From: Planctomycetota bacterium
GTDB lineage: Bacteria; Planctomycetota; GCA-002687715; CAIWVZ01
Assembly (NCBI GenBank): GCA_044222185.1
Contig: JBGANV010000002.1
Coordinates: 64,001-128,000 of the forward strand
Direction of reading: 5' to 3'
DNA length: 64,000 nucleotides
Under the pieces are notes generated by a model. That model was not told where the DNA came from and ran no database searches. It was given only the letters and a program-made list of their open reading frames with translations. Of this stretch, positions 3,731-18,215 are shown piece after piece. Every line of letters starts with the position of its first letter. The first letter of the stretch is position 1. Position numbers and translations under genes: made by a program.

Positions 3731-4324
3731 TCAGTCGAACCAGTTGCGGATGTCGACCGCAGTACGGCGCGCGGATTCCGCAACGTCGCGAAGCACGCTG
3801 GCTCCGAATCGCACCGTGTCCTCCACGAGTTGGCCGCCCGCCTTCTGCACGAAGTCGAGGGGGCCATCCGCGTGCTGTCGGATCGTCTCCGCATCGACGG
3901 CTGCTTCGTACGCCGCGCCCGTCAGGTCGCCGAGGAGCCGCCGCGGGAGAAGGCCGTCCGAGGCTTCGTGAATGATCCCTTCCGAGAGGCGCCGGTTCGC
4001 TTCGAGCATTCCGTCGTACGACCGGTCGTTCGCCCAGTCGGCGTCGTGACGATCGCACGGACGACGGAGCGGGATGCCGAACAGCTTGTCGGGCACGAGC
4101 CCGGTGTTGTCGCTGCCGCACCCCGCAGGCCCGTCGGGGCCGAAGTTCACGAAGCCTCCCAGGTAGTCCGTCGTCCCGTCTGGCTGCTCGGACGCGAGGA
4201 ACGAGCGAAGCGCCGATGGTGCCTCCTCGGTCGTGGTCGAGACGCGAGCAGGCGCCGGCGTCGGCGTGGGCAGAGGTGCGGGCGCAGGCAGCCGCGGGGC
4301 CGCCGTGGGAAACTCGAAAGACAT
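3731..4324 (-). CDS. Prokaryotic phospholipase A2-like protein with Pro-rich disordered N-terminus; candidate T3SS effector
   Basis: GGAGG RBS; GCGS...VPD..FG....PCDRHD...W and A..YEAAV resemble the prokaryotic PLA2 fold; no Sec signal; lies directly downstream of sctU. Confidence 0.65.
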   Translation of the reverse strand: MSFEFPTAAPRLPAPAPLPTPTPAPARVSTTTEEAPSALRSFLASEQPDGTTDYLGGFVNFGPDGPAGCGSDNTGLVPDKLFGIPLRRPCDRHDADWANDRSYDGMLEANRRLSEGIIHEASDGLLPRRLLGDLTGAAYEAAVDAETIRQHADGPLDFVQKAGGQLVEDTVRFGASVLRDVAESARRTAVDIRNWFD

Positions 4325-4378
4325 GACGATCCTCCAACGCCCGTGCGCACAATCGCGCACGATCAGCGCTGTGGAGTG

Positions 4379-4442: not shown

Positions 4443-5612
4443 TCAACCCGCCGCGAGCGGAAGATCCCAGCTCCAGGATGCACCATCCTTCGGCTTGGAC
4501 TCGCGCGCTTCCCACGGAAGGGTTCGACCGTCGTCTTCGTAGCGCTCCCGCGCCCACTGATAGACGGCTGCCAATGCGTCGTGCAACTCCAACGGCGCCC
4601 AGCCTCCTTCGCGCACCGTGTAGAGACTGCGGGCGAGTTCCCGGTCGACCTTCACCGGAACTCCCGCGCGAAGTGCGATGTCGCGCAGGGCCAGGGCGTT
4701 CCCGTCTTCGGCTTTCACCCAGACACGCGGCGCACCTTCCGTCGGGTCGAACCGCAGGCCGACGAAGTAATGCGTCGGATTCATCACTCCCAGGTCCGTA
4801 TCCGGGGCTCGCTGCATCTTCCGCAGTTGCTCTCGGAACTCGGCCTGCGCGCGATGCTTCATCTCGCGAACCTCTGGAGAGCCGAGCTGATCCTTGATCT
4901 CCTCCTTCAGCTCCTTCTCCGACATGCGCGCGTCCACTCGGAACTTCCGCATCCGTCTGAGCAGGTCGACGAAGCCGAGACCGCCGAACGCACCGAGTAC
5001 GGCGCTGACGAGCGTGCCGGCCATGGCGCCGGTCGCTTCGACGGCAGCGATGGGGTCCGCACCACAGGTCCCGAGGAGCGTCGGGAGACGGTTCTCGAGG
5101 ATCGCGAAGGTCGTCCCGGCGACGGTGAGGAACTTGACCACCGTGAATGCGAACTCGACGCGCCCTTCTGGAGACAGCATGAGCATGCGCTTCAACTGGT
5201 CGCCGTTGAACAGCCGCTCGAACTTCGGACTGATCGACTCGAACGTGAAGATCGGCCCGACCGCCGGCAGGAGCCGTATGAACGACGCGAGCGCGCCGGC
5301 CATGGCCGCGGCGACGAGCGTGGGCCAGAGTGCCGTCACGGCTTCACCGGCCGTGCGGAGGATCGACAACTCCACGAGACCTCGCGCCGGCAGCTCATCG
5401 TTCCCGGCAGCTCCGATGGCTTCGTTCAAGGCGCGGACCAGCGGCCTGGTCACGGCCCCCACCGAGTTCGCGAGGCCGCCGATCGTGACGGCGACGACGA
5501 AGAACCCGGTGAAGTCCGCCGAGCCCGCAGGGCCCTGCCCGCGCTTGCGCATCTCGTCCAGGCGACGCGGGGTCGGCTCGTGTGGTTTCTCTTCCGTCTC
5601 GTCATCGGCCAC
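4443..5612 (-). CDS. sctU: T3SS export apparatus switch protein SctU (FlhB/EscU family)
   Basis: N-terminal EEKPHEPTPRRLDEMRKRGQ, four TM segments, RMSEKELKEEIKDQLGSPEV, autocleavage motif NPTH; GTG start at 5612. Confidence 0.93.
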   Translation of the reverse strand: MADDETEEKPHEPTPRRLDEMRKRGQGPAGSADFTGFFVVAVTIGGLANSVGAVTRPLVRALNEAIGAAGNDELPARGLVELSILRTAGEAVTALWPTLVAAAMAGALASFIRLLPAVGPIFTFESISPKFERLFNGDQLKRMLMLSPEGRVEFAFTVVKFLTVAGTTFAILENRLPTLLGTCGADPIAAVEATGAMAGTLVSAVLGAFGGLGFVDLLRRMRKFRVDARMSEKELKEEIKDQLGSPEVREMKHRAQAEFREQLRKMQRAPDTDLGVMNPTHYFVGLRFDPTEGAPRVWVKAEDGNALALRDIALRAGVPVKVDRELARSLYTVREGGWAPLELHDALAAVYQWARERYEDDGRTLPWEARESKPKDGASWSWDLPLAAG

Positions 5613-5619
5613 GACAGAC

Positions 5620-6411
5620 CTATTCCGTAATGAACGGGGCAAGGAGGCGCGGCAGGTCGTCGATCGTCAACGTCACGATGGCCGCCGCGGAGAAGAAGAC
5701 GATCAGCAGCCCGAGCCACGGCTTCAGCGTGAACCCGAGGAAGAAGAGCCCGCCGGGACCGAGCGGAGCGATGCGGTTCAGCAATCCCAAGGCGATGTCC
5801 ACGATGAACATGGTCGCGACCGCCGGGATCGCCAGGCGAATCGCCAAGAGGAACGTCTCACCGGCGAGCGTCGTGAGTCCAGCGACGGTCGCGTCGCCCG
5901 TCGCTCCGCCAGGTCCGTGACCGGGTGGAATCGCCCGGTAGCTCCGCGCGAGACCTGCGGCGAGGTAACCAAGCCCCCCCAGCGACGCGAACGTCGCCAG
6001 TTCGAGCTGGAGCAGGAACGGACCGAGGGGCGAGGACTGGGCCTGGGTCCACGGATCGATGAAGTTCGCGAATTTCACATCGCGCGCGACGTCGATCAGG
6101 TCGCCGGTTCCGGCCACGATCTCGAACACGAGACGCACCGCGACGGCGATGGTGATCCCCGTGGCCAGTTCGGAGCCCATGGCGAGGCCGAATTCGAAGC
6201 CGAACTCCGGCATGGGCTGCGCCCCGAGGCCCGGGGCGATCGCCAGGGCCAGGAGCAAGCCGGCACCGATCCGCACGGTCTGCGGCGCCTGCGGACCAGC
6301 GAACACGGGCGTCGCGACGATCACGGGCATCACTCGCGCGAGGACGAGAGCGATCGCCTCGATCCGCGGAACTCCGCTCACCGCACGCAAGACGCCGAGG
6401 ATTGCATCCAC
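5620..6411 (-). CDS. sctT: T3SS export apparatus subunit SctT (FliR family)
   Basis: LARV...PVF, AGTGDLIDVAR, LAIPAVATMFIVDIALGLLNRIAP; located between sctS and sctU. Confidence 0.9.
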   Translation of the reverse strand: MDAILGVLRAVSGVPRIEAIALVLARVMPVIVATPVFAGPQAPQTVRIGAGLLLALAIAPGLGAQPMPEFGFEFGLAMGSELATGITIAVAVRLVFEIVAGTGDLIDVARDVKFANFIDPWTQAQSSPLGPFLLQLELATFASLGGLGYLAAGLARSYRAIPPGHGPGGATGDATVAGLTTLAGETFLLAIRLAIPAVATMFIVDIALGLLNRIAPLGPGGLFFLGFTLKPWLGLLIVFFSAAAIVTLTIDDLPRLLAPFITE

Positions 6412-6438
6412 GATGATCGACTCGTCGGCGGCTCGCGG

Positions 6439-6708
6439 TCAGCGGCCGATCTCGGCGACGCCGCGGAACATCTCGCCGGCAAACTGGACCAGCTGCTCGA
6501 GGGCGGCGAGGCCGAGTCCGGCGATCACGGCGTACGCCGCGATGGTCTTGACGACGACGCTGATCGATTGCTCCTGAACCTGGGTCGCCGCCTGGAACAC
6601 ACTGACGATCATGCCGATCGCCGCGACCAGGACCACGACCGGCGCACTGAGCAGCAACGACAGGTAGAGGGCCTCTTGGGCCACGCGCACCGCTTGTTCC
6701 ATGGCCAT
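6439..6708 (-). CDS. sctS: T3SS export apparatus subunit SctS (FliQ family)
   Basis: ALYLSLLLSAP...VSVFQAATQVQEQSISVVVK signature; 89 aa. Confidence 0.93.
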   Translation of the reverse strand: MAMEQAVRVAQEALYLSLLLSAPVVVLVAAIGMIVSVFQAATQVQEQSISVVVKTIAAYAVIAGLGLAALEQLVQFAGEMFRGVAEIGR

Positions 6709-6722
6709 GATTTCACCGCCCT

Positions 6723-7391
6723 TCAGGCGTAGCCGCGAGTCAAACCGAAGAGGACGAGTCGCCAGCCGTCGGCCAGCACGAATAGGAGCAGCTTCAACGG
6801 CAACGTGATGCTCGTGGGCGTGAGCATCGAGGCCCCGACCGCCAGCAAGATGTTCGTCACCACGAGGTCGATCACGAGGAAGGGAACGAAGAGCAGGAAG
6901 CCGATCTGGAATGCCTCTCCGAGCTCGGTGAGGAGAAACGCTGGCGCATCGACCGTGAAGAGCGCGACCACGGGTCGGTAATCGTCCCCACCGTCGAGGA
7001 CGCCGGAGGACTCCGCTCGAAGGCCCAGGAAGAGTTCACGGTTCTCGATCGAGCTGTTCTTGATGAGGAACTCGCTCAACGGTTCGGCGACGGCGCGAGC
7101 CATCTGCGGGTACTTCGTCGCGCGCTCGACGGGCGGCAGCTCGACGATCGGCCTCAGCCGCTCGACGGCAACTCCGACGACGGGCGCCATGATGTGAAGA
7201 CTGAGGACGAGGGCGATCCCCGCGATGACGCTGTTCGGCGGCGTCTGTTGTGTGCCGATCGCCTGTCGAAGCAGGCTGCCGACGACCATGAGCTTCGCGA
7301 ACGAGGTGACGATCGTCAGGATGAATGGAGCGAGGCCGAGAAGGCTCAGCGCAATCACCGTCTCGAAACCGATTCCCATGCCGTCGTTCAT
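6723..7391 (-). CDS. sctR: T3SS export apparatus subunit SctR (FliP family, no cleavable signal peptide)
   Basis: TSFAKLMVV..LLRQAIGTQQTPPN, PAFLLTELGEAFQIGFLLFVPFLVIDLVV, LPLKLLLFVLADGW. Confidence 0.95.
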   Translation of the reverse strand: MNDGMGIGFETVIALSLLGLAPFILTIVTSFAKLMVVGSLLRQAIGTQQTPPNSVIAGIALVLSLHIMAPVVGVAVERLRPIVELPPVERATKYPQMARAVAEPLSEFLIKNSSIENRELFLGLRAESSGVLDGGDDYRPVVALFTVDAPAFLLTELGEAFQIGFLLFVPFLVIDLVVTNILLAVGASMLTPTSITLPLKLLLFVLADGWRLVLFGLTRGYA

Positions 7392-7864
7392 GCCGGCTCC
7401 TTCTCCGAAGGCCCGCGGGACCGCCCCGTCGTGAATCCGAGCCGGGACGCGAAATCGGCCCCGGCCAGCGTCGAGGGGACCGAAGAGCCCGCACGAGTGC
7501 CAAGTCGCGTCAGGCCGGTCTCGGACGCAGCGATCATCTCGACCCCGTCGTCGACGCGAACGAGGTACAGCGATCGGCGCGGCTCCAGCCGAAGGACGTC
7601 GATGATTTCCAGACGTCCGCCTCGGGACCGGGTCGTCGGCGAACCACGTCGGCGCAGGACCCGCGAGGCGACGAAGAACGCCGCGAGGATCACCAGGAGC
7701 GCGCCACCCGTCTTCAGGATCGACGCGCCGTACGACGGCGCACCGAGCGGGTTCGGCCCAGGCACCATGGTCCCCGTGCGGGTCACCAAGGGACGCGACG
7801 TGGCGACCTCGGACAGCTGTTGGAGCCGGGGCGCATCCAGGAAATCAGGGTGGATCGGATTCAT
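7388..7864 (-). CDS. fliO: FliO-family export-gate assembly chaperone
   Basis: One TM helix (ALLVILAAFFVASRVLRR), then LEIIDVLRLEPRRSLYLVRVDDGVEMIAASETGLTRL; overlaps the sctR start, as in fliO-fliP. Confidence 0.8.
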   Translation of the reverse strand: MNPIHPDFLDAPRLQQLSEVATSRPLVTRTGTMVPGPNPLGAPSYGASILKTGGALLVILAAFFVASRVLRRRGSPTTRSRGGRLEIIDVLRLEPRRSLYLVRVDDGVEMIAASETGLTRLGTRAGSSVPSTLAGADFASRLGFTTGRSRGPSEKEPA

Positions 7865-7904
7865 GGTCTCGGCGGACGGTCACCGACTACCCGCCGTCCG
7901 AACT

Positions 7905-7931
7905 ATCGCGATTCGCCCTCCCGCGTTGCGC
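7905..7931 (-). promoter_or_regulatory. Putative sigma-28-like internal promoter upstream of fliO-sctRSTU
   Basis: Minus strand GCGCAAC-N15-GCGAT(AG) in the 113-bp gap between sctQ and fliO. Confidence 0.6.
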
Positions 7932-7977
7932 CACACGGCGCGCGGCTCGGGGATTTGCGGGCGAGCCCCCACGTCCG

Positions 7978-9069
7978 TCACGCCGTCACGGCTGGCAGCA
8001 CCCGCACTCCCCGGCCGTTCTCGTGAACGGCGAAGTCGACGGCTCGAGGCGGAAAGCCATCCGCAACCAGCCAGGCGGGCGCGGCGGGATCCAACGTCAG
8101 GCGCAGGCGCGTCGCCGACGCCATGTGGCTGAACGTGGCGAAGTCGAGCGCGTGCGTTCCGGCGACGACGTACGCGGCGCAGATGTCCGCCCGGCCGTTC
8201 GGGACGTGAGCCACCTCGATCTTCGGGTCCGCCCGCAACTCCACTTCGAGCTCGAGCGGCGTCGCGCGAGACGCTTGCGCGGGAGCGATCGCGAAGCCGG
8301 TCTCGCTGACGAGCATGCCGTGGTTCCCCTCGGCCTCGCTCGACGCGCTCCGCCCCAGTTCCACGAAGTCGCCTGCCTCGATCATCCGGAGCTCGTGCAC
8401 GCGAGCGCCGAAAGGCAAGACCCATCGCACCGTGACGAGCTCGGTCGATCCGACGGAGAACGGGTCGCCTGGCAACCCTCGGAGCAGCGAGCCGACGTCC
8501 GGCGGAACACGTACCGGGCGTGTCCACCAGGTCGCACTGCCCCGACGCGCGCCGACGACGACGTCGAGCGGGATCCCCGACAGCCCCGCCGTCTTCACGC
8601 ATCTGTCCGCCTCGGGGCCCTCCAGAAGTCGCGTGGCGCCCAATCCTGGAGCGCCTGCGTCGAGCCGTCGGCTCCGCGCCTCGCCGAGCGCGTCCAGCAG
8701 GGTCACGAGACCAAAATCGAGGATCCCTCGCTCGCGTTCCGTGAGAGGTCCGGGCATGGGACCGTCGCCGACGGCCTCACGCATCCGATCGACGAGGATC
8801 CGCGCGAGGAACTCGTCGATGCTGACGAATGACGCCACCCCCGCTCCGTCGAGGAACTCGACGACACCGACTTGTGATCGCATGTCGACCGGCGGTGGTC
8901 GCCGCGAGACGGCGACCGCGACGTGTGCCGAAAACGCCGACCGCCCGGCCTCGTCCAGATCGCGAAGCACGTCCATCGCAGCAGCCCATTCCGTCGCCGT
9001 GAAGTCGCGTGTCGCGAGGCGGCGCACGGCGGCCTGGCTGAGTCGTGTCCATTCCTCGTGACTTCGCAT
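7978..9069 (-). CDS. sctQ: Divergent SctQ (FliM/FliN-like sorting-platform protein)
   Basis: Two degenerate SpoA-like segments (ELRMIEAGDFVELG; PAWLVADG...AVHENGRGVRVL); located between the sctP-like gene and fliO. Confidence 0.7.
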   Translation of the reverse strand: MRSHEEWTRLSQAAVRRLATRDFTATEWAAAMDVLRDLDEAGRSAFSAHVAVAVSRRPPPVDMRSQVGVVEFLDGAGVASFVSIDEFLARILVDRMREAVGDGPMPGPLTERERGILDFGLVTLLDALGEARSRRLDAGAPGLGATRLLEGPEADRCVKTAGLSGIPLDVVVGARRGSATWWTRPVRVPPDVGSLLRGLPGDPFSVGSTELVTVRWVLPFGARVHELRMIEAGDFVELGRSASSEAEGNHGMLVSETGFAIAPAQASRATPLELEVELRADPKIEVAHVPNGRADICAAYVVAGTHALDFATFSHMASATRLRLTLDPAAPAWLVADGFPPRAVDFAVHENGRGVRVLPAVTA

Positions 9070-9147
9070 GTCGCATACCCCCGTGACGAGACTCCCACTT
9101 CGCTGGCTCGATCCGCGAGGAACCCACGTCGTGGTCGCCACGTCGGT

Positions 9148-9978
9148 TCAAATCGACCCGTCGGCACTCCACGACTCCACTTCGATGCCTCGCCGCCGCA
9201 TCTCTTCCACGAGAGCCGTGCCGTGGCGCATTCCTTCGTCGCCCCCCGTCCGTGGCCCGTTCAGTCTCAGTCGGACCTTCCGCGGCCCCACGGCCGTGAC
9301 GAAGACCTCGACGCCGCCGAGGACCTGGTCGGCGAAGCCCACGCGCATCTCGTTCCGGCCCGACTCGTCGCGGCCGAACTCTGCGAATCGCACGAGCCGG
9401 CCGAAGTCCCCGCGGGACAAACCAGCTGGAGGTCGAACATCCGTTGGCGACTGCGCCGGTCCGGGGGCGAGGGGCGGTTCCGGGTCGACGGTCGTTCGCG
9501 GGGCATCCCCACCCGGATCGTCCGCCGATGGCCTCGATCGACCCTTCGCCGCCGTGGGGCGCTCCGCTGCCCGCGCATGGGCACCATCAGAAACCTCGCG
9601 GTGGTCCCGCGCGCGATGACGAGCGGCGGCAGGGTGCATTCGGATGTGATCGGCGACGTCCGGATCGCTCGTCTCCTCTGCCGACGGATCACCTCCCGCG
9701 CTCGCGGCCGTGTCATCCACTTCAGACGCCGGGTCCTCACGGTCGAAAGCCACTCCGCCGACCTGCACGTTCGCAATGATCGACCCGGCTTCGCCGGCGT
9801 CGCCCTCCATCGGACCGACGTCGTCGTGGACGTCCTCCGCACGCTCGGGGTTGAGTCGCTGCAGGAACTCGCGGCCCTCGCGCACCGCGTCTCGACGGAC
9901 GCGATCGTGCCGAGCGGGCACGCCGCGATCGCGACGGAGCGCACGAGGCGGATCTTTTGGCAACTCGAAGAAACTCAT
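9148..9978 (-). CDS. SctP/FliK-like length-control (ruler) protein
   Basis: Long low-complexity Pro/Asp/Ala N-terminus plus a compact C-domain (EMRVGFADQVLGGVEVFVTAVG..VRLRL...LVEEMRRRGIEV); located between sctO and sctQ. Confidence 0.6.
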   Translation of the reverse strand: MSFFELPKDPPRALRRDRGVPARHDRVRRDAVREGREFLQRLNPERAEDVHDDVGPMEGDAGEAGSIIANVQVGGVAFDREDPASEVDDTAASAGGDPSAEETSDPDVADHIRMHPAAARHRARDHREVSDGAHARAAERPTAAKGRSRPSADDPGGDAPRTTVDPEPPLAPGPAQSPTDVRPPAGLSRGDFGRLVRFAEFGRDESGRNEMRVGFADQVLGGVEVFVTAVGPRKVRLRLNGPRTGGDEGMRHGTALVEEMRRRGIEVESWSADGSI

Positions 9979-10550
9979 GTTCGCCGTCCTCCGGACCCCG
10001 GGCTGCGCTTCCGCCGATCCAGCCTCACGAGGTTCTCGTCCTCGCGCGTCGATTCGGTGATGGCCTCCTGGCGCGCCAGGAATTCCTCGATCTCGTCCAT
10101 GCGGATCGCATCGCAGATCTCGAACTGCCTCGTCGCGGTAGCGAGTTCACATCGAGCGGTCACGACGTTGTCCCACGCCCGGCGCATGACGTTGATCTGA
10201 TATCCACGCAAGCAGTTCGTCGGCCGGTTGCCGTCCGCGGTCGCCGCGTCCCCCCAGATGCGTGTTCGAAGGACTTCGAGCCAGTGTTGCTGAGCTGCGA
10301 GGAGGCCGCGGATCAGCGGATCCGGTTGAGCACCCTGGATCGCACCAAGGCGCGCGGTTCGCGTACGAAACCGTCGTGCCGCTCGCGCCGCCAGGCGCCG
10401 GAGCACGTCCTCCCCCCGTCGGGCCGCGCGATAGGCAGCACGTGCGCTGGCCAGCCGCGTCTCGGCCTCCTCGAGGTCGCGACGGACCCGGTCCAGCCTG
10501 AACTCCAGGCTGAACACGAACCCCTTCGGGTTTTGAACGACCTCCGTCAC
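9975..10550 (-). CDS. SctO/FliJ-like coiled-coil stalk protein
   Basis: FVFSLEFRLDRVRRDLEEAETRLA coiled coil, ending EDENL; immediately downstream of the ATPase. Confidence 0.65.
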   Translation of the reverse strand: MTEVVQNPKGFVFSLEFRLDRVRRDLEEAETRLASARAAYRAARRGEDVLRRLAARAARRFRTRTARLGAIQGAQPDPLIRGLLAAQQHWLEVLRTRIWGDAATADGNRPTNCLRGYQINVMRRAWDNVVTARCELATATRQFEICDAIRMDEIEEFLARQEAITESTREDENLVRLDRRKRSPGSGGRRT

Positions 10551-10553
10551 GGA

Positions 10554-11954
10554 TCACCTCCTGGTCTGAGCGCAAATGGACCCGAGGAGTTGCAGCGTCC
10601 GATCCAATGGAACGGGTGGATCCGACTTGTTTTGAGGCAGGAGCGGAGACGGCACGGTCTCCGTCCCGCCGAAGAGTGCGCGCCCGGTGATGGCCGCGAG
10701 CCGACGGTCGAAAGCCGCGCGCCCCTCGACCGGCCTGAAGTCGTCAGGGTTGCGCCGAAACTCGTACGCGGAGCGCAGGGTCTCCTCCACGAGCCGCACG
10801 CACGCGATTCGCCGTTCGGCCTCCTCGGGCGATGCGCACTCCGCATCGATCACCGCGTCCCGCACGCGACTGACGCTGTCGAAGACGTCGATACCCGGAC
10901 GCCACCGGACCCGGTCGCCCAGCGGTCGCAGATAGAGGTGCCCGTCGAGGAGGCTCTTCACCTCTTCGGCGACGACGTCCAGTGAGCCGTCGGTGGAGTC
11001 CATCAGCACCGTGTAGATCGCCGTGATCGACCCCTGCTCCGTGTTTCCGGCACGTTCGAACAACCGTGGCAGCTCGGCGAACACGGATGGCGGATAACCT
11101 CCACGCCCGGGAGCCTCCTCGAGGGCCAACCCGAGATCTCTCACGGCGCGCGCAAACCGCGTCACCGAGTCCATCAAGAGCAGGACGTCGCGGCCCATGG
11201 CACGCTCGCGTTCCGCGATCGCCGTGGCGATGTGCGCCGCGCGCAGGCGGAGGACGGCCGGCTCGTCGGACGTGGAGACGACGACGGTCGCCTGGGCGCG
11301 CGCAGCCCCCAGATCGTTCTCCAGGAACTCCCTCACCTCACGTTGCCGTTCCCCGATCAGCGCGACGACGATCGAGCGGTTCGTCCTGTCCGCGTCGGCG
11401 TCCAGGCCGCCCTGGCCGAGACGCGTGTCTCGGAAGTAACGGGTGAGCATGCCGAGGAGCGTGCTCTTGCCGACGCCGGCGCCCGCGAAAATCCCAACGC
11501 GCTGGCCTTTGCCGAGCGGAAACAAGGCATCGATGATCTTCACCCCGGTCACGAGTCTTTCCCTGACGATCGGCCGCGACAGCACGTCCATCGGGGTCGG
11601 CTCGATCGCCGCGAGGTTGGGCCTGGCTCCGTGGTCCGAGAGGCGTTGGGTGATCCGGCCGTGTGCGTTCAGGACGCATCCGCGGAGGTCTCCGTCGATC
11701 TCGGCGAGCTCACCGCCGGAAGCGGGGATGACCCGCGCACCTTCCTGCAGGCCCTGAAGCGAGCCGAACGGCATGAGGTGGACGACCTCGTCCGAGAAGC
11801 CGATGACTTCCGCGGGCACGCTCGACGCCGAGTTCACGACGATCGCACACCGTTCGCCCAGACGTGCGTCGGGCAGCGCGGCCTTGATGACGACCCCGGA
11901 CTTGGACGCCGCGCGTACGATCCCCTCGCGGCGGACTCTTGCGGACGACGTCAT
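10554..11954 (-). CDS. sctN: T3SS ATPase SctN (FliI family)
   Basis: GQRVGIFAGAGVGKST (Walker A), LLLMDSVTRFARA (Walker B), GYPPSVFAELPRLFERAG, GSITAIYTVL, LDGH. Confidence 0.95.
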   Translation of the reverse strand: MTSSARVRREGIVRAASKSGVVIKAALPDARLGERCAIVVNSASSVPAEVIGFSDEVVHLMPFGSLQGLQEGARVIPASGGELAEIDGDLRGCVLNAHGRITQRLSDHGARPNLAAIEPTPMDVLSRPIVRERLVTGVKIIDALFPLGKGQRVGIFAGAGVGKSTLLGMLTRYFRDTRLGQGGLDADADRTNRSIVVALIGERQREVREFLENDLGAARAQATVVVSTSDEPAVLRLRAAHIATAIAERERAMGRDVLLLMDSVTRFARAVRDLGLALEEAPGRGGYPPSVFAELPRLFERAGNTEQGSITAIYTVLMDSTDGSLDVVAEEVKSLLDGHLYLRPLGDRVRWRPGIDVFDSVSRVRDAVIDAECASPEEAERRIACVRLVEETLRSAYEFRRNPDDFRPVEGRAAFDRRLAAITGRALFGGTETVPSPLLPQNKSDPPVPLDRTLQLLGSICAQTRR

Positions 11955-12664
11955 GGCGCGGCCTCCATTTCGGGCTTCGAGCTGCCGATCCCCATCAGGA
12001 TCGCGAGGTCTTCGAGATCCTGCATCAACGATTCGCGGTAGCCGGCACCGCGGTCGACGTCGACGTACACGTCGTGGCGGCTCACCTCTTCCGAAGCGAC
12101 GACGCGGATCGACTCGATGTTCGGCGCGGACGCGCGGAGCCGGTCCAGCGCCGCCGTCAGGACCGACACGTCGTCCGCATGGACGCGCACGGTGACCTCG
12201 CTCCGTGCCTTCCGATTCGCCGCACCGAGGCCCCGAAGCGCCAGGCCGATCACGTGGCTCGGATCGGCCGTCAATTCGTTTCGGAGGACCTCCCGTGCGA
12301 TCTGCAACGCGCGCTCGGTCACGACGGCGTCGAATTCGGTGCGTCGTCGCAGCGTCTCGCGCTCGAGCACGTCGAGGACTTTGCGGACCATCGCCGCCCC
12401 CTCGGCGAACCCGTCCGTCCGCGCACGGTCTCGAACGGCATCGGACGCGAACGAAGCATTCTCCAGGATTCGCCGAACTCCCTTGCGCGCCGCAGCCAGG
12501 AGGGCGGCGATGCGCTCGCGGATCCGCTCCACTTCGAGATCGCACGCCGCACGGATGGCCTTCGCGTCGTCGAAGGCGGGCTTCGTCGTTCGCGCCGGTG
12601 GATCCCATGGGCCATCGAACGCCTTCCGATGGATCGTCGCCACGACCAGATGGTCACCGCTCAT
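11951..12664 (-). CDS. sctL: SctL (FliH-like stator)
   Basis: ARTDGFAEG (GxxxG), ALQIAREVL, VTVRVHADD; upstream of and overlapping sctN. Confidence 0.8.
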   Translation of the reverse strand: MSGDHLVVATIHRKAFDGPWDPPARTTKPAFDDAKAIRAACDLEVERIRERIAALLAAARKGVRRILENASFASDAVRDRARTDGFAEGAAMVRKVLDVLERETLRRRTEFDAVVTERALQIAREVLRNELTADPSHVIGLALRGLGAANRKARSEVTVRVHADDVSVLTAALDRLRASAPNIESIRVVASEEVSRHDVYVDVDRGAGYRESLMQDLEDLAILMGIGSSKPEMEAAP

Positions 12665-13577
12665 GTGGACTCCCCGGCTTTGCCTGCAACGCGAGACTCG
12701 CCTGGACACAGAGCAGCCCGACGAGGCGTCGGACTCTCTCGAGATCCAGCGGACCCGGAGTCGCGATGGGCAACGGCTCCGGCTCGGTCAGCACGGTGAG
12801 CGTCGATCGGCGGGCCCCGTCGAGGGAAACGCCCGCCGCAGAGAGCTCCGCCCGGATCCAACCGGAGACGAAGCGACGCCCGAGGTAGTAGGCGGCGCGG
12901 CGACGCATGCCGGTGACGATTCGAGATACCCGCCGCGCCGTCGCTTCCTCGGCCGCGAGACGTCGTGCCTCGAGCTCGAACGCCGACAGCCAGGCTTCCG
13001 CGGGCCAGGCTGCACCGGACGCATCATCCGGCGCACCTAGGAGCGATTGGACACGCTCGCCGACCCGGGCGCCGACATCCTGCCCGTCCTCGCCGAGAGG
13101 TCCGGCGATGCGCTGTGAGAACAGCCGCCGCGCCTCCTTCGGCCCGGTTGAACGAATGACCTGCGCGAGACCCGTGGCGAGAACCTCGATCCCGACCCCG
13201 GCGAGGAACGCCTTGAGCGCCTCGGCCTGCGCGTGTCCCTTCTCGACGGCGAGCACGAACCCTCGAAACGGCTCCGGCAGGACGGAGTACGCGTCGCGCG
13301 CCGACCGGGCGCAAAGCAGTTCGCGCCGCTCGGCCCAACGCTCGCCGCGACCCAGCCTTTCGAACGGAACCCCATCCAGGATCCCAGCTTCTTCACGTGA
13401 CTCCGCGAAGTCCTCTCGGAGCAGCGTCTGCGGCGGAACTGCCTCGTGACGCGGAAACTCCGTCGCTCCGGCGACCATGGCCAGCATGCGCGCCAGCGCT
13501 GCGCGATCGTTGACGCCAGCCAACGCGAACGAGCAGAACGCGCGGAGACGAACCGAGGGTCGAGGATTGGCCGTCAT
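12654..13577 (-). CDS. Hypothetical protein in the SctK position
   Basis: 307-aa helical ORF between sctJ and sctL; assigned by synteny only. Confidence 0.5.
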   Translation of the reverse strand: MTANPRPSVRLRAFCSFALAGVNDRAALARMLAMVAGATEFPRHEAVPPQTLLREDFAESREEAGILDGVPFERLGRGERWAERRELLCARSARDAYSVLPEPFRGFVLAVEKGHAQAEALKAFLAGVGIEVLATGLAQVIRSTGPKEARRLFSQRIAGPLGEDGQDVGARVGERVQSLLGAPDDASGAAWPAEAWLSAFELEARRLAAEEATARRVSRIVTGMRRRAAYYLGRRFVSGWIRAELSAAGVSLDGARRSTLTVLTEPEPLPIATPGPLDLERVRRLVGLLCVQASLALQAKPGSPHER

Positions 13578-13608
13578 TGCACGATGTCCGCACCTGGTTC
13601 AGGCAGAC

Positions 13609-14622
13609 TCAGGCCGAGGCTGCCGCGTCTTTCGCTGCGACCTGGGCAACGTCATCACGCGCGGCCCCGCGCCGGCGACCGAGTGCAAGCCGAAGCAGGA
13701 CGGCGACCAGGACGGCGCCGCAGCCGGCGAGGCCCCAGACCGCGGGCCATCGCATCAGGATCACGCCCTCCTCCGCAAGGGCCTTGAGGGCTGCGGCCTG
13801 AGCCTCGGGTGTCACCGTCGCTCCATCGCCGGACGGAGCTCGGCAATCCACCGCCACGTAGGTGATCGCCACATCCTCCAACCGCATGCCCTCGACCGCC
13901 TGCGCGAGGGTGGCGCAGACCTGGCTCGGGGTGAATGGCGCGTCTTCCGGAATGCCAGCCGTGGCGTCGGACGAGAACGGGCCGATCGCCACGGCATCGC
14001 TGGCGTCGGGCGACACCCCTCGTGGCCGGCTCTTCGACCGGTACCGGAGGATCACGGCCGCGGTCGAGCGGAGACCGTTCATCGGGCGCGATGCCGGCCC
14101 GTCGGCCTTGCCACGCGCGGCGTCGGCGCTCGTCGCGTTCCGAATCGCGTCCACTCCCATGGGCTTGTCCGGGATGACCACGTGAACGCGCGCGGTGATC
14201 ACGTCCGGGTGGACCTCGAACGACCGTGCCGCCTCACCCGCGAGCGCAGCCATGAGCTGCGCGCGCTCATCCGCACGCGTACGACCGAATCCCGTGCGGT
14301 TGCTGAACGCTTCGAGGCCGGAGGGCCTGGGTCGAGGCAACCCGAATGCGAGCATCTTCGCGCGCACGGTGTGGGCGACGTACCCAGGCACGACGACGTC
14401 GAACGACGCTTTCGCGCCCTTTTCCTTCGATGGGTCCACGCGCGGGGAGAGCTCGGGTCCGAGGAGGACCGCGATCTCGTTGGCGTCGTCCGCGCTCACC
14501 GCGAATGCGACCGTGACCTCGGGCGGCGTGCACGCGGTCGTCGCGAGGAGCAGTCCCGCCAGCATGGCGCAACGAAACAGGTTTCGAAACGACGAGCGAC
14601 CATCGACCTCGTGTGAATTCAT
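13609..14622 (-). CDS. sctJ: T3SS inner-membrane ring lipoprotein SctJ
   Basis: Lipobox-like LLLATTAC, DANEIAVLL, GLPRPRPSG, DVITARVHVVIP, AQAVEGMRLEDVAI, C-terminal TM; lacks the long FliF RBM3 region. Confidence 0.9.
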   Translation of the reverse strand: MNSHEVDGRSSFRNLFRCAMLAGLLLATTACTPPEVTVAFAVSADDANEIAVLLGPELSPRVDPSKEKGAKASFDVVVPGYVAHTVRAKMLAFGLPRPRPSGLEAFSNRTGFGRTRADERAQLMAALAGEAARSFEVHPDVITARVHVVIPDKPMGVDAIRNATSADAARGKADGPASRPMNGLRSTAAVILRYRSKSRPRGVSPDASDAVAIGPFSSDATAGIPEDAPFTPSQVCATLAQAVEGMRLEDVAITYVAVDCRAPSGDGATVTPEAQAAALKALAEEGVILMRWPAVWGLAGCGAVLVAVLLRLALGRRRGAARDDVAQVAAKDAAASA

Positions 14623-15074
14623 GACTGGCTCGACATCAACGTGCGAACGGCATTGGAGGCACTTCCGACGACCTGGGAGACGATGGCGACGGAAGACGAC
14701 ATCTCGTAGACGGAGGCTTGGAGCTTCAAGAACGCCTCCATCTTCTGGTTCTCGAGTTCCACCATGGCCGGGTCATCGGCGGTGACGCCCGCAGAGCGGA
14801 GCGCCTTCATCTCCGCGTTGATGCGCGAGAGGGTCGATTCGCACGCGGCGAGGCGCTCGCGAACGAATCCCGCCGGCCCGTTTCCCGCGGCGACTGCCGC
14901 GGCAGCGAATTGACCGTCAGTCGGTACGGCGACCGACGTCGGATCGACCTGCCGCGGAGGGACGACGAACGGACGCCCTCCAGCGGGAGCCTCGACGCTC
15001 TTCGGCGCCGGTACGGACGACGCGCCGTCGGGACGTGTCAGACCCGGGCTGCGGACTCCATCGATGTGCGGCAT
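14619..15074 (-). CDS. SctI-like inner rod protein
   Basis: C-terminal FLKLQASVYEMSSSVAIVSQVVGSASNAVRTLMSSQS matches the SctI pattern; disordered N-terminus; directly upstream of sctJ. Confidence 0.7.
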   Translation of the reverse strand: MPHIDGVRSPGLTRPDGASSVPAPKSVEAPAGGRPFVVPPRQVDPTSVAVPTDGQFAAAAVAAGNGPAGFVRERLAACESTLSRINAEMKALRSAGVTADDPAMVELENQKMEAFLKLQASVYEMSSSVAIVSQVVGSASNAVRTLMSSQS

Positions 15075-15081
15075 GGGAAGG

Positions 15082-15504
15082 TCACTCCGTTGCGCGGGAC
15101 GCCCGCAGGTAGACTTCGTCGAACAGATTGCGAAGCGACGGATCCATGGCGACCTGATCGGCAATCGCCGCCTTCACCTCGGGCGGGGTGCCTGGTCCGA
15201 ACGCACGGTCGATTTCCGCATCGATCACGCGATTGCGAATCGCATCCCGGCTCTCGCCGTTGCGAATGCCATCGGCGACGACGCCTCGCACGCGTTCGGT
15301 GACGCTTCCCGTCGGCACGGCGGCTTGCGTCGAAATCCCGGCCGCTCCTGGGGCCAGCCCCTGCGCGAACTCGGGCCGGTCGCTGAACCGGGCCCCATCC
15401 GCCGTCGGCGGACCGAGCCCCGGGTCCCGATGGCTCGGACCGATCGGATCCGATGGCCCCCTCGGTGGCGGGAGTGGCGAACCGGTACCTGTGATTCCAT
15501 TCAT
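15082..15504 (-). CDS. Hypothetical T3SS-cluster protein (disordered N-terminus, helical C-terminus)
   Basis: GGAGG RBS; MNGITGTGSPLPPP...; C-terminal AIADQVAMDPSLRNLF. Confidence 0.6.
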   Translation of the reverse strand: MNGITGTGSPLPPPRGPSDPIGPSHRDPGLGPPTADGARFSDRPEFAQGLAPGAAGISTQAAVPTGSVTERVRGVVADGIRNGESRDAIRNRVIDAEIDRAFGPGTPPEVKAAIADQVAMDPSLRNLFDEVYLRASRATE

Positions 15505-15534
15505 GGTGCTGCCTCCGGCCGAGTCGAAGCCGGC

Positions 15535-16026
15535 CTAAGCAGTGATCGTGGTGGCGTTGGATCCGTTGCGCCGAGCTCGGGCCACGCGTTGCAGTTCGGC
15601 CGCCGCTCGACCGCCATCCGTCCCGCGCCCGACCTGTCGAGCGCGATCGAACAGGCTCGCGATCGCCTGCGTTTCGCGCTCGTCCGCCGGAAGCCTCAGG
15701 CTCAGGTCGTGACGTGCGGCGCCCTCGAGCCCGAGGGCGAACGCCAGTTCCCCGGCGTTCAGGCGGGGTTTCGCCATCGCAGCCCGCGCATGCTGGACGG
15801 CGGCCTCGGGCCGACCCTCGAGCCACGATATGAGCGCAAGCTGGACGTCGACGAACCCGCTCTGCGGCTGGAGGATCATGAGCGCGCGATAGAGATCGCG
15901 TGCTCCGTCGAGCCACCGCAGCATCACCATGAAGTGGGCGACCTCGGCGAGGAACCGCACTCGCTCCACCCGACGGTCGTCGGGCGCGAGCCCCGCGAGG
16001 ACCTCATGTAGAACCGGCTTTTCCAT
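15535..16026 (-). CDS. TPR chaperone, SctG/CdsG-like needle chaperone
   Basis: FLAEVAHF...ARDLYRALMILQP...QLALISWLEGRPEAA TPR pattern; follows the needle-like gene. Confidence 0.6.
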   Translation of the reverse strand: MEKPVLHEVLAGLAPDDRRVERVRFLAEVAHFMVMLRWLDGARDLYRALMILQPQSGFVDVQLALISWLEGRPEAAVQHARAAMAKPRLNAGELAFALGLEGAARHDLSLRLPADERETQAIASLFDRARQVGRGTDGGRAAAELQRVARARRNGSNATTITA

Positions 16027-16062
16027 GACTCTTCCCTGGCCTCGACGGCCTGCGCCACGTCA

Positions 16063-16347
16063 TCACGGCTTGATGTTGCGGACGGCTTCCATCCCTGCGT
16101 CGTGATAGGTCTTCGAGATGTTCGATCGCAGGGAGAACTCCTGCATCACGGCTTGCATCTCGACCTGCTTCTCGAACAAGGCGTCGAGACGACTGATCTG
16201 ATCGCCGCCCCCGCCGAGACCGAGGAATGATGCGCCGATCCCCAAGGGCGAGCCGCTCAGCACCGTCGACACCGCGGCCCCGAAAGTCGTGCCTCCGAGG
16301 CTTGCACCGGAAAAACCAAGACCGCCGCTGAAGGACCCGGCACCCAT
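16063..16347 (-). CDS. SctF-like needle/filament subunit (94 aa)
   Basis: GAGGAG RBS; C-terminal QVEMQAVMQEFSLRSNISKTYHDAGMEAVRNIK matches the needle pattern SN..K..D....I..N. Confidence 0.75.
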   Translation of the reverse strand: MGAGSFSGGLGFSGASLGGTTFGAAVSTVLSGSPLGIGASFLGLGGGGDQISRLDALFEKQVEMQAVMQEFSLRSNISKTYHDAGMEAVRNIKP

Positions 16348-16400
16348 GACGTTGCTCCTCATGCTCCGCGCCCAGGATCGGGCGAGGCTCGCTGGTGATG

Positions 16401-16427
16401 ATCGGATCCGAGTCGGAGGCGTTGCGC
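16401..16427 (-). promoter_or_regulatory. Putative sigma-28-like promoter upstream of the needle gene
   Basis: Minus strand GCGCAAC-N15-CCGAT in the gap between the sctE-like and sctF-like genes. Confidence 0.6.
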
Positions 16428-16454
16428 CGCCACCCCGGATGACCCGCTCTGACC

Positions 16455-16727
16455 TCAGGCGTTTCCGAGCTTCCGCAGCTCCGCCACGAATGCCCCCGCT
16501 GCGCCGAACGCATGGTCGACGCGGTCGATGGCTTCCGCATCGTCGGTGCAGACCGAACGTGCCGACGCGAGCCAATCCCGCACTTCGCCGAGGAACCCGT
16601 CGAGTTCGGAACAGCGATCGCCGCTCCAGGACGCCGTCAGCATCCGGTGCAGGACGTCGCCCCCTCGAAGGGGTTCCGCGGGCTTGGATTCCGGCTGATC
16701 TGCCGGCGCTCGATCTGACGCGTTCAT
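16455..16727 (-). CDS. Small helical protein, SctE/CdsE-like needle co-chaperone
   Basis: 90-aa helical-hairpin-like ORF (..HAFGAAGAFVAEL) directly upstream of the needle gene; GAGGAG RBS; assigned mainly by synteny. Confidence 0.5.
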   Translation of the reverse strand: MNASDRAPADQPESKPAEPLRGGDVLHRMLTASWSGDRCSELDGFLGEVRDWLASARSVCTDDAEAIDRVDHAFGAAGAFVAELRKLGNA

Positions 16728-16740
16728 CACCTGCTCCTCC

Positions 16741-18111
16741 TCATCCGTTGGTCGCTTCATGGATCAGCCGGCGCATCTCGGCGACGACGCGATCGGCGGT
16801 TTTCTGAGTGGACCCGAACGGGTCGGCGGCGTCGTCGCCGCCCCGGTGTTCCGCCGCATCCAACGCCGCGCGCATCCCGTCCGAGTCGTGCGCGGCGAAT
16901 GCCGCGAAGAACCTCTGCGTCGCGTTCCAGAACGGCGAGAACCCCATGTCGACCGTCCCAGCCGTCGTTGCGACGAACTGGGAGAACCCGGCCAGGTCGT
17001 CAAGCGTGTCCTTCGTTCCTTCCTGGAGGAACCGCTGGGTGTAGACGACCAGCAGCCCGGCAACGAGCGGATCGTAGTTCGCGGCGAGCGCGGTCGGTCG
17101 CGCACGGAAATCGAGGAACGCCTCGAACTGAACGCGTGCCTTGTCGAATTCGCCGATCTCCATGTAGGTCGCGCCCAGTCGGAACTTCACGACGAACAAG
17201 TTCTTGTCGATCGTGAGAACTTCGCGCAGACGCTCGGCGTAAGCGCGCATGCGCGCGACGTACGCGGGATCGTGGGCCTTGACCGCCGGTCCCATGGCAT
17301 CGACGGATTCATCGAGATCCGTTGCGGCGCGCTCCGCCTGGATCAGGGCGCGGCTCGCCTCGAAGACGTCCGAGCGCCACGTCGCGCCAGGAACTCCGTT
17401 GCCGGGACCCCGAGCCGCGACGTTCCACGACCAGCTCTCCTTCAACCACGTCGCGACGATGCGCTTGGCAGCCGTCGGAGTGATCGTGGGGTCGTCTCGC
17501 AGGCGGCTCGAGTTGAACACTGCCCCGATGTTCGCTGCGAAGTTCTTCCCGATGATCGTTCCGAGGAACGAGAGGAACGCCTCGCCCGGCGGTTGGTCCC
17601 ACGCCTCGAGGGACGACGTGGCGACCTCCGCGCTCTCGAGGTAGCGGCGGGCTTCTGCGTACTTGCCTTCGAGACGCGCGATCAGGGCGAGCCCGATCCA
17701 CGCAGGCGGCCAGTCCGGGCAGATCCGCAGGGCATCGCCGAAGTGGTTGAACGCAAGCGCGTGTGCGCTCTCGGCCGCCGCGCCGCGCGGATGCCGCAGC
17801 GCCACGGCGTCGAGGCGCATTTCCCCGAGCTTCGAGTGGAACAAGAAGCACTGGGGGTCGTGTTGGATCGCGTCATCGAGCGGGCGGAGAACCAGACGCC
17901 GGCGTCCGCTCTCGAGTTCGTCTTGCGACAGTGGCGCGGAGTGGAGTTCGAACCAGCCCCGTCGCGCTTCCTCGTATTTCGTCTGACCGGCCTGGCTCAA
18001 GAACAGCGCATCCCGGTCCGGGATCTCGCGCGAAGCACAACCAGGCACGAAAACGATCACCAACGTGACGATCGCCATCACGACTGCGCGGCAGGTGGAC
18101 TCGAGGGTCAT
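16741..18111 (-). CDS. TPR-repeat lipoprotein, first gene of the T3SS operon
   Basis: Hydrophobic signal ending VFVPGC; TPR motifs (AWIGLALIARLEGKYAEA; FRLGATYMEIGEFDKARVQFE). Confidence 0.75.
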   Translation of the reverse strand: MTLESTCRAVVMAIVTLVIVFVPGCASREIPDRDALFLSQAGQTKYEEARRGWFELHSAPLSQDELESGRRRLVLRPLDDAIQHDPQCFLFHSKLGEMRLDAVALRHPRGAAAESAHALAFNHFGDALRICPDWPPAWIGLALIARLEGKYAEARRYLESAEVATSSLEAWDQPPGEAFLSFLGTIIGKNFAANIGAVFNSSRLRDDPTITPTAAKRIVATWLKESWSWNVAARGPGNGVPGATWRSDVFEASRALIQAERAATDLDESVDAMGPAVKAHDPAYVARMRAYAERLREVLTIDKNLFVVKFRLGATYMEIGEFDKARVQFEAFLDFRARPTALAANYDPLVAGLLVVYTQRFLQEGTKDTLDDLAGFSQFVATTAGTVDMGFSPFWNATQRFFAAFAAHDSDGMRAALDAAEHRGGDDAADPFGSTQKTADRVVAEMRRLIHEATNG

Positions 18112-18215
18112 TGGACGCTCCATGGAGGGTTCGCCCCGCGGTCGTTGCGGGCCCGACGGTGCAGAGCAGCGATCACCGAGCCCGTGACGGGCCAGGCCAC
18201 TGCCTCCGCAGTGCA

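Follow-up and report, generated by a model that had tools for sequence, protein, structure and literature searches.

The window, a stretch of 64,000 nucleotides corresponding to positions 64001-128000 of the 933 kb contig C6 of a Planctomycetota bacterium, carries a cluster of 18 genes (window 4443-18123, minus strand) for a highly divergent type III secretion system (T3SS) that is non-flagellar and apparently intact and stands as a second set beside the flagellar one of the same genome. A preliminary description of this DNA had proposed such a system in a probable Planctomycetota-like bacterium, and this proposal held, the genome being of the Planctomycetes-Verrucomicrobia-Chlamydiae (PVC) or Planctomycetota type. 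Genes for the export gate, the ATPase and the cytoplasmic ring are present, without flagellar shaft, motor or secretin genes, and it is by gene content that we recognise a second, non-flagellar T3SS. It is probably (we estimate a chance of roughly two in three) a functional, secretin-less machine that has retained FliO and would work like the T3SS* of Myxococcus.

Core genes of the cluster

The assembly comprises 7.08 Mb in 16 contigs, with a G+C content of ~67.5%. As raw lists of open reading frames (ORFs) are noisy at this G+C content, genes were called by log-odds of codon usage, for which 704 long ORFs of this genome served as the training set. According to these calls the minus strand carries a run of 22 genes, from window position 18123 down to 248, whose first 18 members (16741-18123 to 4443-5612) form the T3SS cluster, co-oriented and mostly abutting as originally described. 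Junctions are tight, with 4-bp overlaps between the 151-amino acid (aa) gene g151 and sctJ, between sctL and sctN, and between the fliO-like gene and sctR, and most gaps are shorter than 100 bp. All 18 genes are open, the regions of the NPTH motif, Walker A and FHIPEP are full length, and the cluster has the G+C content of the genome. A scan for promoter-like sites (none in window 1-20000) and terminator-like sites (8 vs 8.7 expected) was uninformative. The core genes are as follows:

4443..5612, minus strand: SctU (FlhB family), 389 aa; Pfam PF01312 Bac_export_2, 200.9 bits
5620..6411, minus strand: SctT (FliR family), 263 aa; PF01311 Bac_export_1, 151.8 bits
6439..6708, minus strand: SctS (FliQ family), 89 aa; PF01313 Bac_export_3, 66.9 bits
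6723..7391, minus strand: SctR (FliP family), 222 aa; PF00813, 190.2 bits
7388..7864, minus strand: FliO-like single-pass membrane protein, 158 aa; PF04347, 25.7 bits (gathering score 22)
7978..9069, minus strand: SctQ/FliM-FliN-family cytoplasmic ring protein, 363 aa; family profile and AlphaFold2 (AF2) model
10554..11954, minus strand: SctN/FliI-family ATPase, 466 aa; PF00006 ATP-synt_ab, 224.2 bits; Walker A GAGVGKST
11951..12664, minus strand: SctL/FliH-family stator protein, 237 aa; NCBIfam below cut-off, and blastp
13609..14622, minus strand: SctJ-type inner-membrane ring protein, 337 aa; PF01514 YscJ_FliF, 42.4 bits (gathering score 24.4)

The Pfam matches given for the core lie above the gathering score, which bears out the assignments first made from the sequence alone of SctR, SctS, SctT, SctU, SctN and SctJ. 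Paired NCBIfam equivalogs were used to compare each protein with the injectisome (SctX) and the flagellar model, and the two scored almost equally for SctU (171.5 bits; FlhB 163.5), SctT (114.7; FliR 121.8), SctS (56.9; FliQ 55.7) and SctN (358; FliI 348, the ATPase cut-offs being ~600), in every case far under the cut-off. SctR is the only core protein that passes an NCBIfam cut-off, with NF009438 EscR/YscR/HrcR (202 bits vs 179); it has the motif TSFAK and lacks a long N-terminal signal region, as noted before. The NPTH autocleavage motif of SctU is intact, N278-P279-T280-H281 being invariant in the SctU alignment. SctJ is short and a probable lipoprotein, with an N-terminal signal ending in ...LLLATTAC and a C-terminal transmembrane helix, and scores 46.6 bits with TIGR02544 SctJ vs 20.2 bits with FliF, both under cut-off. 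The assignment of SctL, likewise upheld, rests on NCBIfam matches to HrpE/YscL (E 2.8e-7), SctL (E 7.7e-7) and FliH (E 4.7e-6), all under cut-off, together with a blastp match to chlamydial SctL (E 1.3e-9). SctN is 43% identical to the genome's own FliI.

Pfam does not match the SctQ-like ORF directly, and its assignment was confirmed with a profile of its family. Among 1.84 billion representatives only four relatives reach E <=0.001; three of the five family members match Pfam FliMN_C (best E 2.5e-12), and the family profile matches FliN, HrcQ2, SpaO and YscQ-C in the PDB (E 3.6e-7 to 5.6e-5). Its AF2 model (predicted local distance difference test, pLDDT, 65) gave Foldseek matches to full-length FliM and FliM::FliN with E down to 7.5e-7, and the nearest ESM Atlas clusters, taken as a lead only, are YscQ/HrcQ/FliMN, mostly of Myxococcota. 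Together these results place the 363-aa protein in the SctQ family.

Three features had been overlooked in the preliminary description. The first is the FliO-like gene, which lies immediately upstream of sctR, the place that it has in flagellar operons; its product scores 41.4 bits with TIGR03500, under the cut-off of 55, and has homologues in two related genomes introduced below, G346 (PF04347, 29.7 bits) and G022 (E 1.3e-6). The second is sctV, a full-length FHIPEP gene (PF00771, 456.9 bits) outside the 18-gene span, at C6:49396-51654, ~17 kb left of sctU. The type III export gate families are complete, with SctR/S/T/U in the window and SctV on the same contig, and the SctN ATPase, its FliH/SctL partner and the SpoA-family platform protein SctQ are all present. 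The third is that no secretin (PF00263) is encoded on the 933-kb contig C6, the eight matches in the genome all lying on other contigs.

Pfam and NCBIfam found no rod, hook, flagellin, motor, FliF-length or FliG protein in the 18-gene span, in agreement with the initial inspection. Flagellum-specific genes are found by tblastn as single copies on contigs C7, C10 and C1, together with the other export set: FlgB/C and FliE/F/G/I lie on C7 at 267-273 kb, FliM/N at 380 kb and FliPQR-FlhBA at 389-394 kb; C10 carries FlgI/K together with a hook-type gene, and C1 carries flagellin. The window T3SS proteins are only 27-43% identical to these flagellar paralogues, and for this reason the reading of the cluster as a recent paralogue of the flagellar set was rejected. 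With the same Pfam model, the flagellar FlhA of the genome scores 828 bits vs 457 for the SctV of the window system.

Relatives and phylogenetic position

PSD1 domains (PF07587) mark planctomycetes, and the genome has five genes for them, vs none in 14 control genomes. Its class counts only 23 species genomes, and relatives of the system are rare. SctU relatives above the level of flagellar FlhB (~100 bits) occur in two of 400 other sampled genomes of the phylum, G346, from the same order (163 bits, 34% identity), and G022 (161.9 bits, 33%), the next best score being 120 bits; they occur in one of the 22 other genomes of the class and in none of the four of the family. A search of 5.8 billion protein clusters gave 46% identity for the closest SctU, followed by proteins at 36% and 33%. 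The nearest SctV is 54% identical, and the following three (34-37%) are named 'flagellar biosynthesis protein FlhA [Planctomycetota bacterium]' by NCBI, so that such systems may hide in existing annotation. For SctN, a search of one genome per species (185,579 species) gave best matches of 41-48% identity, in which chlamydial SctN and spirochaete FliI were mixed.

An SctN tree was built from 56 rows, which comprise <=4 per taxon group, out of 92, and both F1 ATPase subunits of the genome, taken as outgroup (quick search, LG+C20). The window and G346 proteins pair on a long branch (Shimodaira-Hasegawa-like approximate likelihood ratio test, SH-aLRT, 95), outside the chlamydial SctN and the FliI clades, with which the pair forms a trichotomy. 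The F1-ATPase root, which is unreliable, fell among the proteobacterial injectisome ATPases with a branch length of 10 and was not used.

A second tree was built from the concatenated SctN/R/S/T/U/V proteins, with 36 rows and 2051 columns (LG+G4, quick tree), in which each row holds at least two of the six proteins and ten rows have less than half of their columns filled. A classical non-flagellar clade of 14 rows (SH-aLRT 100; Ysc, Hrp2, Rhc, SPI-1, four chlamydial-type genomes, a Verrucomicrobiia metagenome-assembled genome (MAG) and five others) and a flagellar clade of 19 rows (100) were recovered, and the window, G346 and G022 form a group with support 99 whose branch joins between these two clades, inside neither. 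An 18-row subset under LG+C20+F+G4 gave the same three clades, with the window group outside a 7-row non-flagellar and an 8-row flagellar clade. The concatenated tree is unrooted, and in it the window clade may be sister to either of the other two. The deep branching proposed at the outset is thus what these trees give: within a narrow flagellar sampling, the core proteins do not fall in the flagellar clade, and no matching rod and hook genes accompany them. Nor is the cluster a close homologue of the described Ysc, Hrp2, Rhc, SPI-1 or chlamydial systems, to which identities are 27-45%. A recent transfer from Chlamydiae or Proteobacteria was rejected in view of the native G+C content, the tree position and the Planctomycetota-named relatives.

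The residue at the lysine position of the SctR motif is K in 13/13 non-flagellar rows and R in 13/13 flagellar rows; the window and G022 proteins have K, that of G346 has R.

In gene content the system resembles the secretin-less myxobacterial ones. In the available text of Abby & Rocha 2012 (PMC3459982), non-flagellar T3SS are reported only from Proteobacteria (then including the delta-proteobacterial myxobacteria), Chlamydiae and Verrucomicrobia; Planctomycetes are listed there only as holders of flagella, and a secretin-less 'Myxo' group is basal. The T3SS* of M. xanthus, as set out in the portion of PMC10433427 at hand, consists of SctD, J, I, Q, RSTUV, N, L and LcrH-like chaperones, lacks secretin, needle and translocon, and is active at prey contact sites. 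FliO, according to the accessible part of a preprint (PMC12248157), occurs in the non-flagellar T3SS of Myxococcota and is no longer specific to the flagellum. Our literature searches brought up no description of a non-flagellar T3SS in Planctomycetota or Phycisphaerae, a point on which the supplementary list of PMC12248157 may bear.

The window locus shares with T3SS* and the 'Myxo' group the lack of secretin, recognisable needle and translocon genes (for the needle, absence means that none was found) and a FliO homologue within the operon. Further common features are SctJ, an SctI-like protein, SctQ, SctRSTUV, SctN, SctL and candidate chaperones of TPR type, a position in between the flagellar systems and the classical injectisomes, and nearby genes for FHA-domain proteins. 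Unlike T3SS*, the window system belongs to a Planctomycetota-type host that is also flagellated, its sctV lies apart, and, no standard SctD having been found, a protein in which an FHA domain, a membrane segment and a serine protease domain are joined is conserved instead, in two of the three loci. A gene for a DUF1521 protein is also conserved in all three window-type loci, whereas none is seen in the T3SS* gene list as given in the consulted part of PMC10433427.

With classical injectisomes the locus has in common the gene order E-F-G-H-I-J-K-L-N-O-P-Q-R-S-T-U (compared with a Ysc reference locus, L201), the K in SctR's TSF.K motif, a ring protein that is a short, probable lipoprotein of SctJ type, and DUF1521 candidate substrates like those of rhizobial and Vibrio systems. 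It differs from them (Ysc, Hrp2, Rhc, SPI-1, chlamydial Cds) in core proteins that are only 25-45% identical and branch outside their clade, in having FliO, and in that no secretin, SctD, SctW, tip or translocon was found in it. With the flagellar export apparatus (FliOPQR, FlhBA, FliHIJ, FliMN) it shares the protein families, an SctQ model that matches full-length FliM, and the operon order fliF-G-H-I-J-K ... fliM/N-O-P-Q-R-flhB with FliO before FliP; in contrast to a flagellum, it has no genes for a ring protein of FliF length, for FliG or for a rod, hook, filament or stator, and lies outside the flagellar clade.

Candidate substrates and possible ways of working

The remaining genes of the cluster, and two neighbours that recur with it, are the following:

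9148..9978, minus strand: g257, 257-276 aa, SctP/FliK position, conserved C-terminal domain; position and homologues
9975..10550, minus strand: coiled-coil protein, 191 aa, weak SctO/FliJ candidate; sub-threshold matches
12654..13577, minus strand: g307, 307 aa, SctK/FliG position; position only
14619..15074, minus strand: g151, 151 aa, weak SctI (inner rod) candidate; sub-threshold C-terminal matches
15082..15504, minus strand: g140, 140 aa, conserved, yscH position; G022 homologue E 1e-12
15535..16026, minus strand: g163, TPR-like protein, 163 aa, yscG/SctY position; candidate secretion chaperone
16063..16362, minus strand: g99, 99 aa, yscF position; candidate exported axial or early substrate
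16455..16760, minus strand: g101, acidic protein, 101 aa, yscE position; no family match
16741..18123, minus strand: TPR protein, 460 aa, first operon gene; Pfam TPR_2, 32.7 bits
18404..20254, plus strand: FHA-membrane-protease protein, 616 aa; FHA 60.6 bits, Yop-YscD_cpl 35.1 bits (gathering score 33.2), Trypsin_2 37.7 bits
C6:54380-55750, left of the window: DUF1521/MIIA protein, 456 aa; PF07481, 23.9 bits (gathering score 23.6)

The operon order is retained in G022, where a TPR lipoprotein, a small ORF, a g99 homologue, a TPR protein, a g140 homologue and an ORF in the SctI position are followed by an SctJ-type gene, an ORF in the K position, SctL, SctN, O, a g257 homologue, an SctQ-like gene, FliO, R, S and T. 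The G022 locus also holds a second short YscJ_FliF member, and its sctU, DUF1521 gene and sctV lie together ~15 kb from the operon. The sctT and sctU genes of G022 are separated by ~15 kb of two-component, lipase and TetR genes, and a seemingly unrelated gene for 179 aa (L224:6371-6910) lies between its sctL and sctN. In G346, N-O-P-like genes are followed by genes for an extracytoplasmic function (ECF) sigma factor, a Ser/Thr kinase and the FHA-membrane-trypsin protein, then by an SctQ-like gene, FliO, R, S, T, U, the DUF1521 protein and a homologue of a 411-aa protein encoded left of the window.

The first operon gene occupies the place of yscD in the Ysc order, and its product is a probable lipoprotein, with an N-terminal hydrophobic segment ending in ...VPGC; the G022 counterpart, in the same position, is a 469-aa helical-repeat protein with ...LLLAVGC. 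For g101 and g140 there was no family match (NCBIfam; Pfam at E up to 10), and the G022 counterpart of g101 is a 96-aa ORF in the same position. A YscF-like score of g101 (z 5.0) extends over a low-complexity stretch and was not trusted. The TPR-like g163 matches the NCBIfam model T3SS_chap_SctY at E 4.3e-4 (20.8 bits, under the cut-off of 70), and a TPR-like 146-aa ORF holds its place in G022; a complex prediction of g163 with the g99 C-terminus, run without controls, had a median score of 0.14 and gave no answer.

The SctO- and SctI-like labels of the preliminary description stand only as sub-threshold matches, and its SctP- and SctF-like labels reflect gene order without statistical support. 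The SctO candidate reaches E 0.0015 with TIGR02473 and E 0.025 with PF02050 (FliJ), and its positional homologue in G346 matches FliJ at E 0.0024. The C-terminus of g151 matches the SctI models TIGR02497 (E 0.0064) and PF17001 (E 0.023), both under cut-off, and the whole protein aligns with its positional homologue in G022 at 30% identity; g307, without a match in Pfam, NCBIfam, ESM Atlas or PDB, is 26% identical to its own. Homologues of g257 exist in G022 (E 1.4e-8) and G346; it has no Pfam or PDB match, and a T3S4 profile of 28 sequences found nothing. Iterated hidden Markov models (HMMs) from reference loci for needle, SctI, SctO/FliJ and SctK, small and weak as profiles, found nothing in the locus. 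PDB searches with profiles in which g99, g151, g257 or g307 was combined with homologues from G022 or G346 gave only chance-level matches (E >=0.17), and shuffle tests of g99, g151 and g140 against YscF, YscI, FliE, YscE, YscG and YscX gave z <=2.4.

Two proteins of the locus appear to share a segment. The g99 protein has a Gly-rich, probably disordered N-terminal half and a single long C-terminal helix (residues 54-97 in an AF2 model of pLDDT 57), and is 45% identical to its G022 homologue (E 4.7e-12). The 53 C-terminal aa of g99 share 38% identity with the last ~50 residues of the DUF1521 protein (E 2e-8), and the motif K-[TK]-x-H-[DE]-x-x-M-x-x-[IVL]-[RN]-N-[IVL] is present in g99 and in all three DUF1521 proteins. 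These join an N-terminal DUF1521 domain to the C-terminal helix motif and are found in 3/3 loci (PF07481 49.3 bits in G346 and 31.9 in G022), encoded beside sctU in G346 and, in G022, flanked by sctU and sctV. The residues W69-G70-D71-P72-H73 (WGDPH) are invariant in 7/7 sequences. Known DUF1521 proteins, NopE1/2 and VIC_001052, act on eukaryotic hosts. GDPH is described, in the part of PMC6506597 available to us, as the calcium-induced autocleavage site of the MIIA domain in these T3SS-secreted proteins, NopE1/2 being secreted by the Bradyrhizobium T3SS and VIC_001052 encoded in a T3SS cluster of the coral pathogen Vibrio coralliilyticus. The window genome's protein has in common with them the DUF1521 domain, the invariant GDPH and a gene in a T3SS locus, and adds a long low-complexity region after the domain and the g99-like helix motif; it is a likely substrate of the cluster.

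The 616-aa protein, divergently encoded from the operon, combines a cytoplasmic FHA (YscD-like) domain, a transmembrane segment (168-186) and a trypsin-like domain with His/Asp/Ser motifs. A homologue with 34% identity is part of the operon in G346, where it lies upstream of an SctQ-like gene, and H254, D318 and S409 are invariant; the protein is present in 2/3 loci and was not found in the G022 stretches that were fetched. It is a candidate for a functional stand-in for SctD, or for a regulator. No SctD of the usual form was found, FHA/Yop-YscD_cpl domains occurring only on proteins of other build. A 525-aa FHA/coiled-coil protein encoded beside sctV was rejected as SctD, since it has no transmembrane segment.

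The machine would assemble in the inner membrane as other T3SS do, with FliO helping to build the R/S/T core, which SctJ, perhaps together with the FHA-membrane-protease protein, would ring. SctQ/L/N/O would feed substrates, of which the DUF1521 protein and three small conserved operon proteins (g99, g140, g151) are likely ones. Contact-dependent killing or predation is a use proposed solely by analogy with the Myxococcus T3SS*.

Several observations weigh against a functional system of this kind. SctR apart, all core proteins score under the NCBIfam equivalog cut-offs, SctX and flagellar alike; a SpoA profile of ~100 sequences, built from reference loci, did not match the SctQ candidate; the SctO and SctI candidates are weak, and SctP, SctK, SctF and SctD are without statistical support. 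The trees are unrooted, their flagellar sampling is narrow and the window branches are long (1.3-3.1 changes per column), so that the placement is less sure than the support values suggest. They contain no Myxococcota sequences, and kinship to T3SS* is outside their scope. One of the eight secretins from elsewhere in the genome could serve the system. The SctR motif of G346 is TPFIR, with R and not K, so that K, taken at first as an injectisome sign, fails in this relative, and the G346 sctR (L119:15067-15710) is split over two reading frames into ORFs of 63 and 147 aa, owing to a frameshift or to a fault in the assembly. Finally, about half of the single-nucleotide polymorphisms (SNPs) relative to other samples, in low-depth contigs, are non-synonymous, which indicates at most mild constraint.

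These samples are activated-sludge sequencing runs from three other studies, in which DNA pieces at least 99% alike were found. The 40 differences listed comprise 18 synonymous, 19 non-synonymous and 3 intergenic ones, and 45 others are unlisted. Among the runs listed none is of RNA. The sole listed indel is outside coding sequence, and among the differences listed, from four runs of the three studies, none is a frameshift in the cluster. As the organism recurs in activated sludge, samples exist for transcript, protein and imaging work.

Rather than being an offshoot of the myxobacterial lineage, the window, G346 and G022 may form a third, Planctomycetota-specific line of type III machines, in which FliO would have been kept, SctD replaced by the membrane-tethered FHA-serine-protease protein, and the distal part made of the Gly-rich g99 and the calcium-triggered, self-cleaving DUF1521 protein with the same helix. 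We consider such a separate line possible but doubtful; if true, it would have a newly built device for secretion or contact, which may go back to a separate exaptation of the export apparatus of flagella.

An injectisome with a needle was the original interpretation, and a complete classical one would have g99 as needle, g151 as inner rod, a secretin and translocators encoded elsewhere, and DUF1521 effectors delivered into eukaryotes, for instance sludge protists. The host-directed action of NopE1/2 and VIC_001052 fits this, as do the parallel with yscE-F-G-H-I-J-K-L and yscN-O-P-Q-R-S-T-U, the secretin genes on other contigs and the K state of SctR. The secretion of NopE1/2 by a T3SS, and the place of VIC_001052 in a T3SS cluster, are taken from the same partial source (PMC6506597). 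However, the contig lacks a secretin, FliO is retained and the clade lies outside classical injectisomes. Moreover, needle proteins are expected as hairpins, in contrast to the one helix modelled after the Gly-rich tail of g99, and g99 has no support as a needle protein in Pfam (E up to 10), NCBIfam, PDB sequence and profile searches or pairwise shuffling. No SctW, tip or translocon family was matched by Pfam or NCBIfam among the proteins scanned, and blastp found no match to YopN or InvE for SctW. No needle, secretin, translocon or usual SctD could be shown, and the needle-bearing form first put forward was not supported; we judge a complete injectisome unlikely.

Less probable still is an export core for another surface or periplasmic organelle, which would move proteins from the cytoplasm to the periplasm or surface, in the large planctomycete periplasm, without delivery from cell to cell. 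It would account for the lack of outer-membrane components, translocon and recognisable needle, for a periplasmic protease tethered to a YscD-like FHA domain and for the lipoproteins of the locus; it is, however, pure inference without precedent, the DUF1521 substrates covered by the part of PMC6506597 at our disposal are known only from host-directed T3SS, and the Myxococcus T3SS* acts at prey contact sites in what PMC10433427 reports in the text at hand. Least probable of all is that a flagellar export apparatus was duplicated or transferred and that the cluster is what is left of it, decaying or idle and functionless at present: very long branches, low HMM scores, the distant sctV, the interrupted G022 locus, the split G346 sctR and the share of non-synonymous SNPs would suit this reading, but the 18 genes are open with full-length key motifs and native G+C, the four sludge runs list no frameshift, the order of the operon and its small ORFs are conserved in G022, across classes of the phylum, and G346 keeps the accessory genes.

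What is new here is the phylum, the distinct three-locus clade, the DUF1521 candidate substrate sharing a helix with g99 and the FHA-membrane-protease partner in 2/3 loci. A secretin-less, FliO-retaining system in another phylum would give a second view of the intermediate between flagellum and injectisome, independent of the myxobacterial lineage, and the self-cleaving DUF1521 substrate and the FHA-protease membrane partner are candidates for explaining how such 'half machines' work.

Surrounding genes and other observations

Left of the window, besides sctV, the 525-aa FHA/coiled-coil protein, the 456-aa DUF1521 protein and the 411-aa protein, there are genes for a 214-aa lipoprotein, a 1074-aa Ser/Thr kinase, an ECF sigma factor and a further kinase, which bears TPR repeats. 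The surroundings of the cluster are rich in regulators (window 22197-23794, plus strand; C6:57367-64188), among them a third FHA protein, two sigma-70/ECF-type factors and two Ser/Thr kinases, one with TPR repeats; a kinase and an ECF factor are present in the G346 locus too.

Downstream of sctU the gene run continues with:

248..4360, minus strand: four co-oriented genes of 209, 249, 333 and 462 aa

No homologues of these four genes were found in the G346 or G022 loci. The 462-aa protein, the last of the run (window 248-1636, minus strand), matches Pfam Collagen (34.3 bits) and the phage tail Collar domain (87.4 bits) and has a 47%-identical paralogue on contig C15; a collar-domain ORF also lies near an FlhB-like gene in a metagenome locus (L123). 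Elsewhere in the window (27319-30981, minus strand) a 1220-aa protein joins an astacin metalloprotease domain, FG-GAP repeats and lamin tail domains.

The searches for relatives also brought up contigs labelled Acidobacteriota or Verrucomicrobiota (L028, L060, L042, L054, L058, L062) whose SctN falls inside a tight chlamydial SctN clade, and a genome labelled Verrucomicrobiae (G404) with a chlamydia-like scattered T3SS; these may be mislabelled or mis-binned chlamydial MAGs. A Verrucomicrobiia MAG (L210, G405:C6:18001-24012) carries a Ysc-like sctQ-R-S-T-U block, with an SctR that is 54% identical to YscR.

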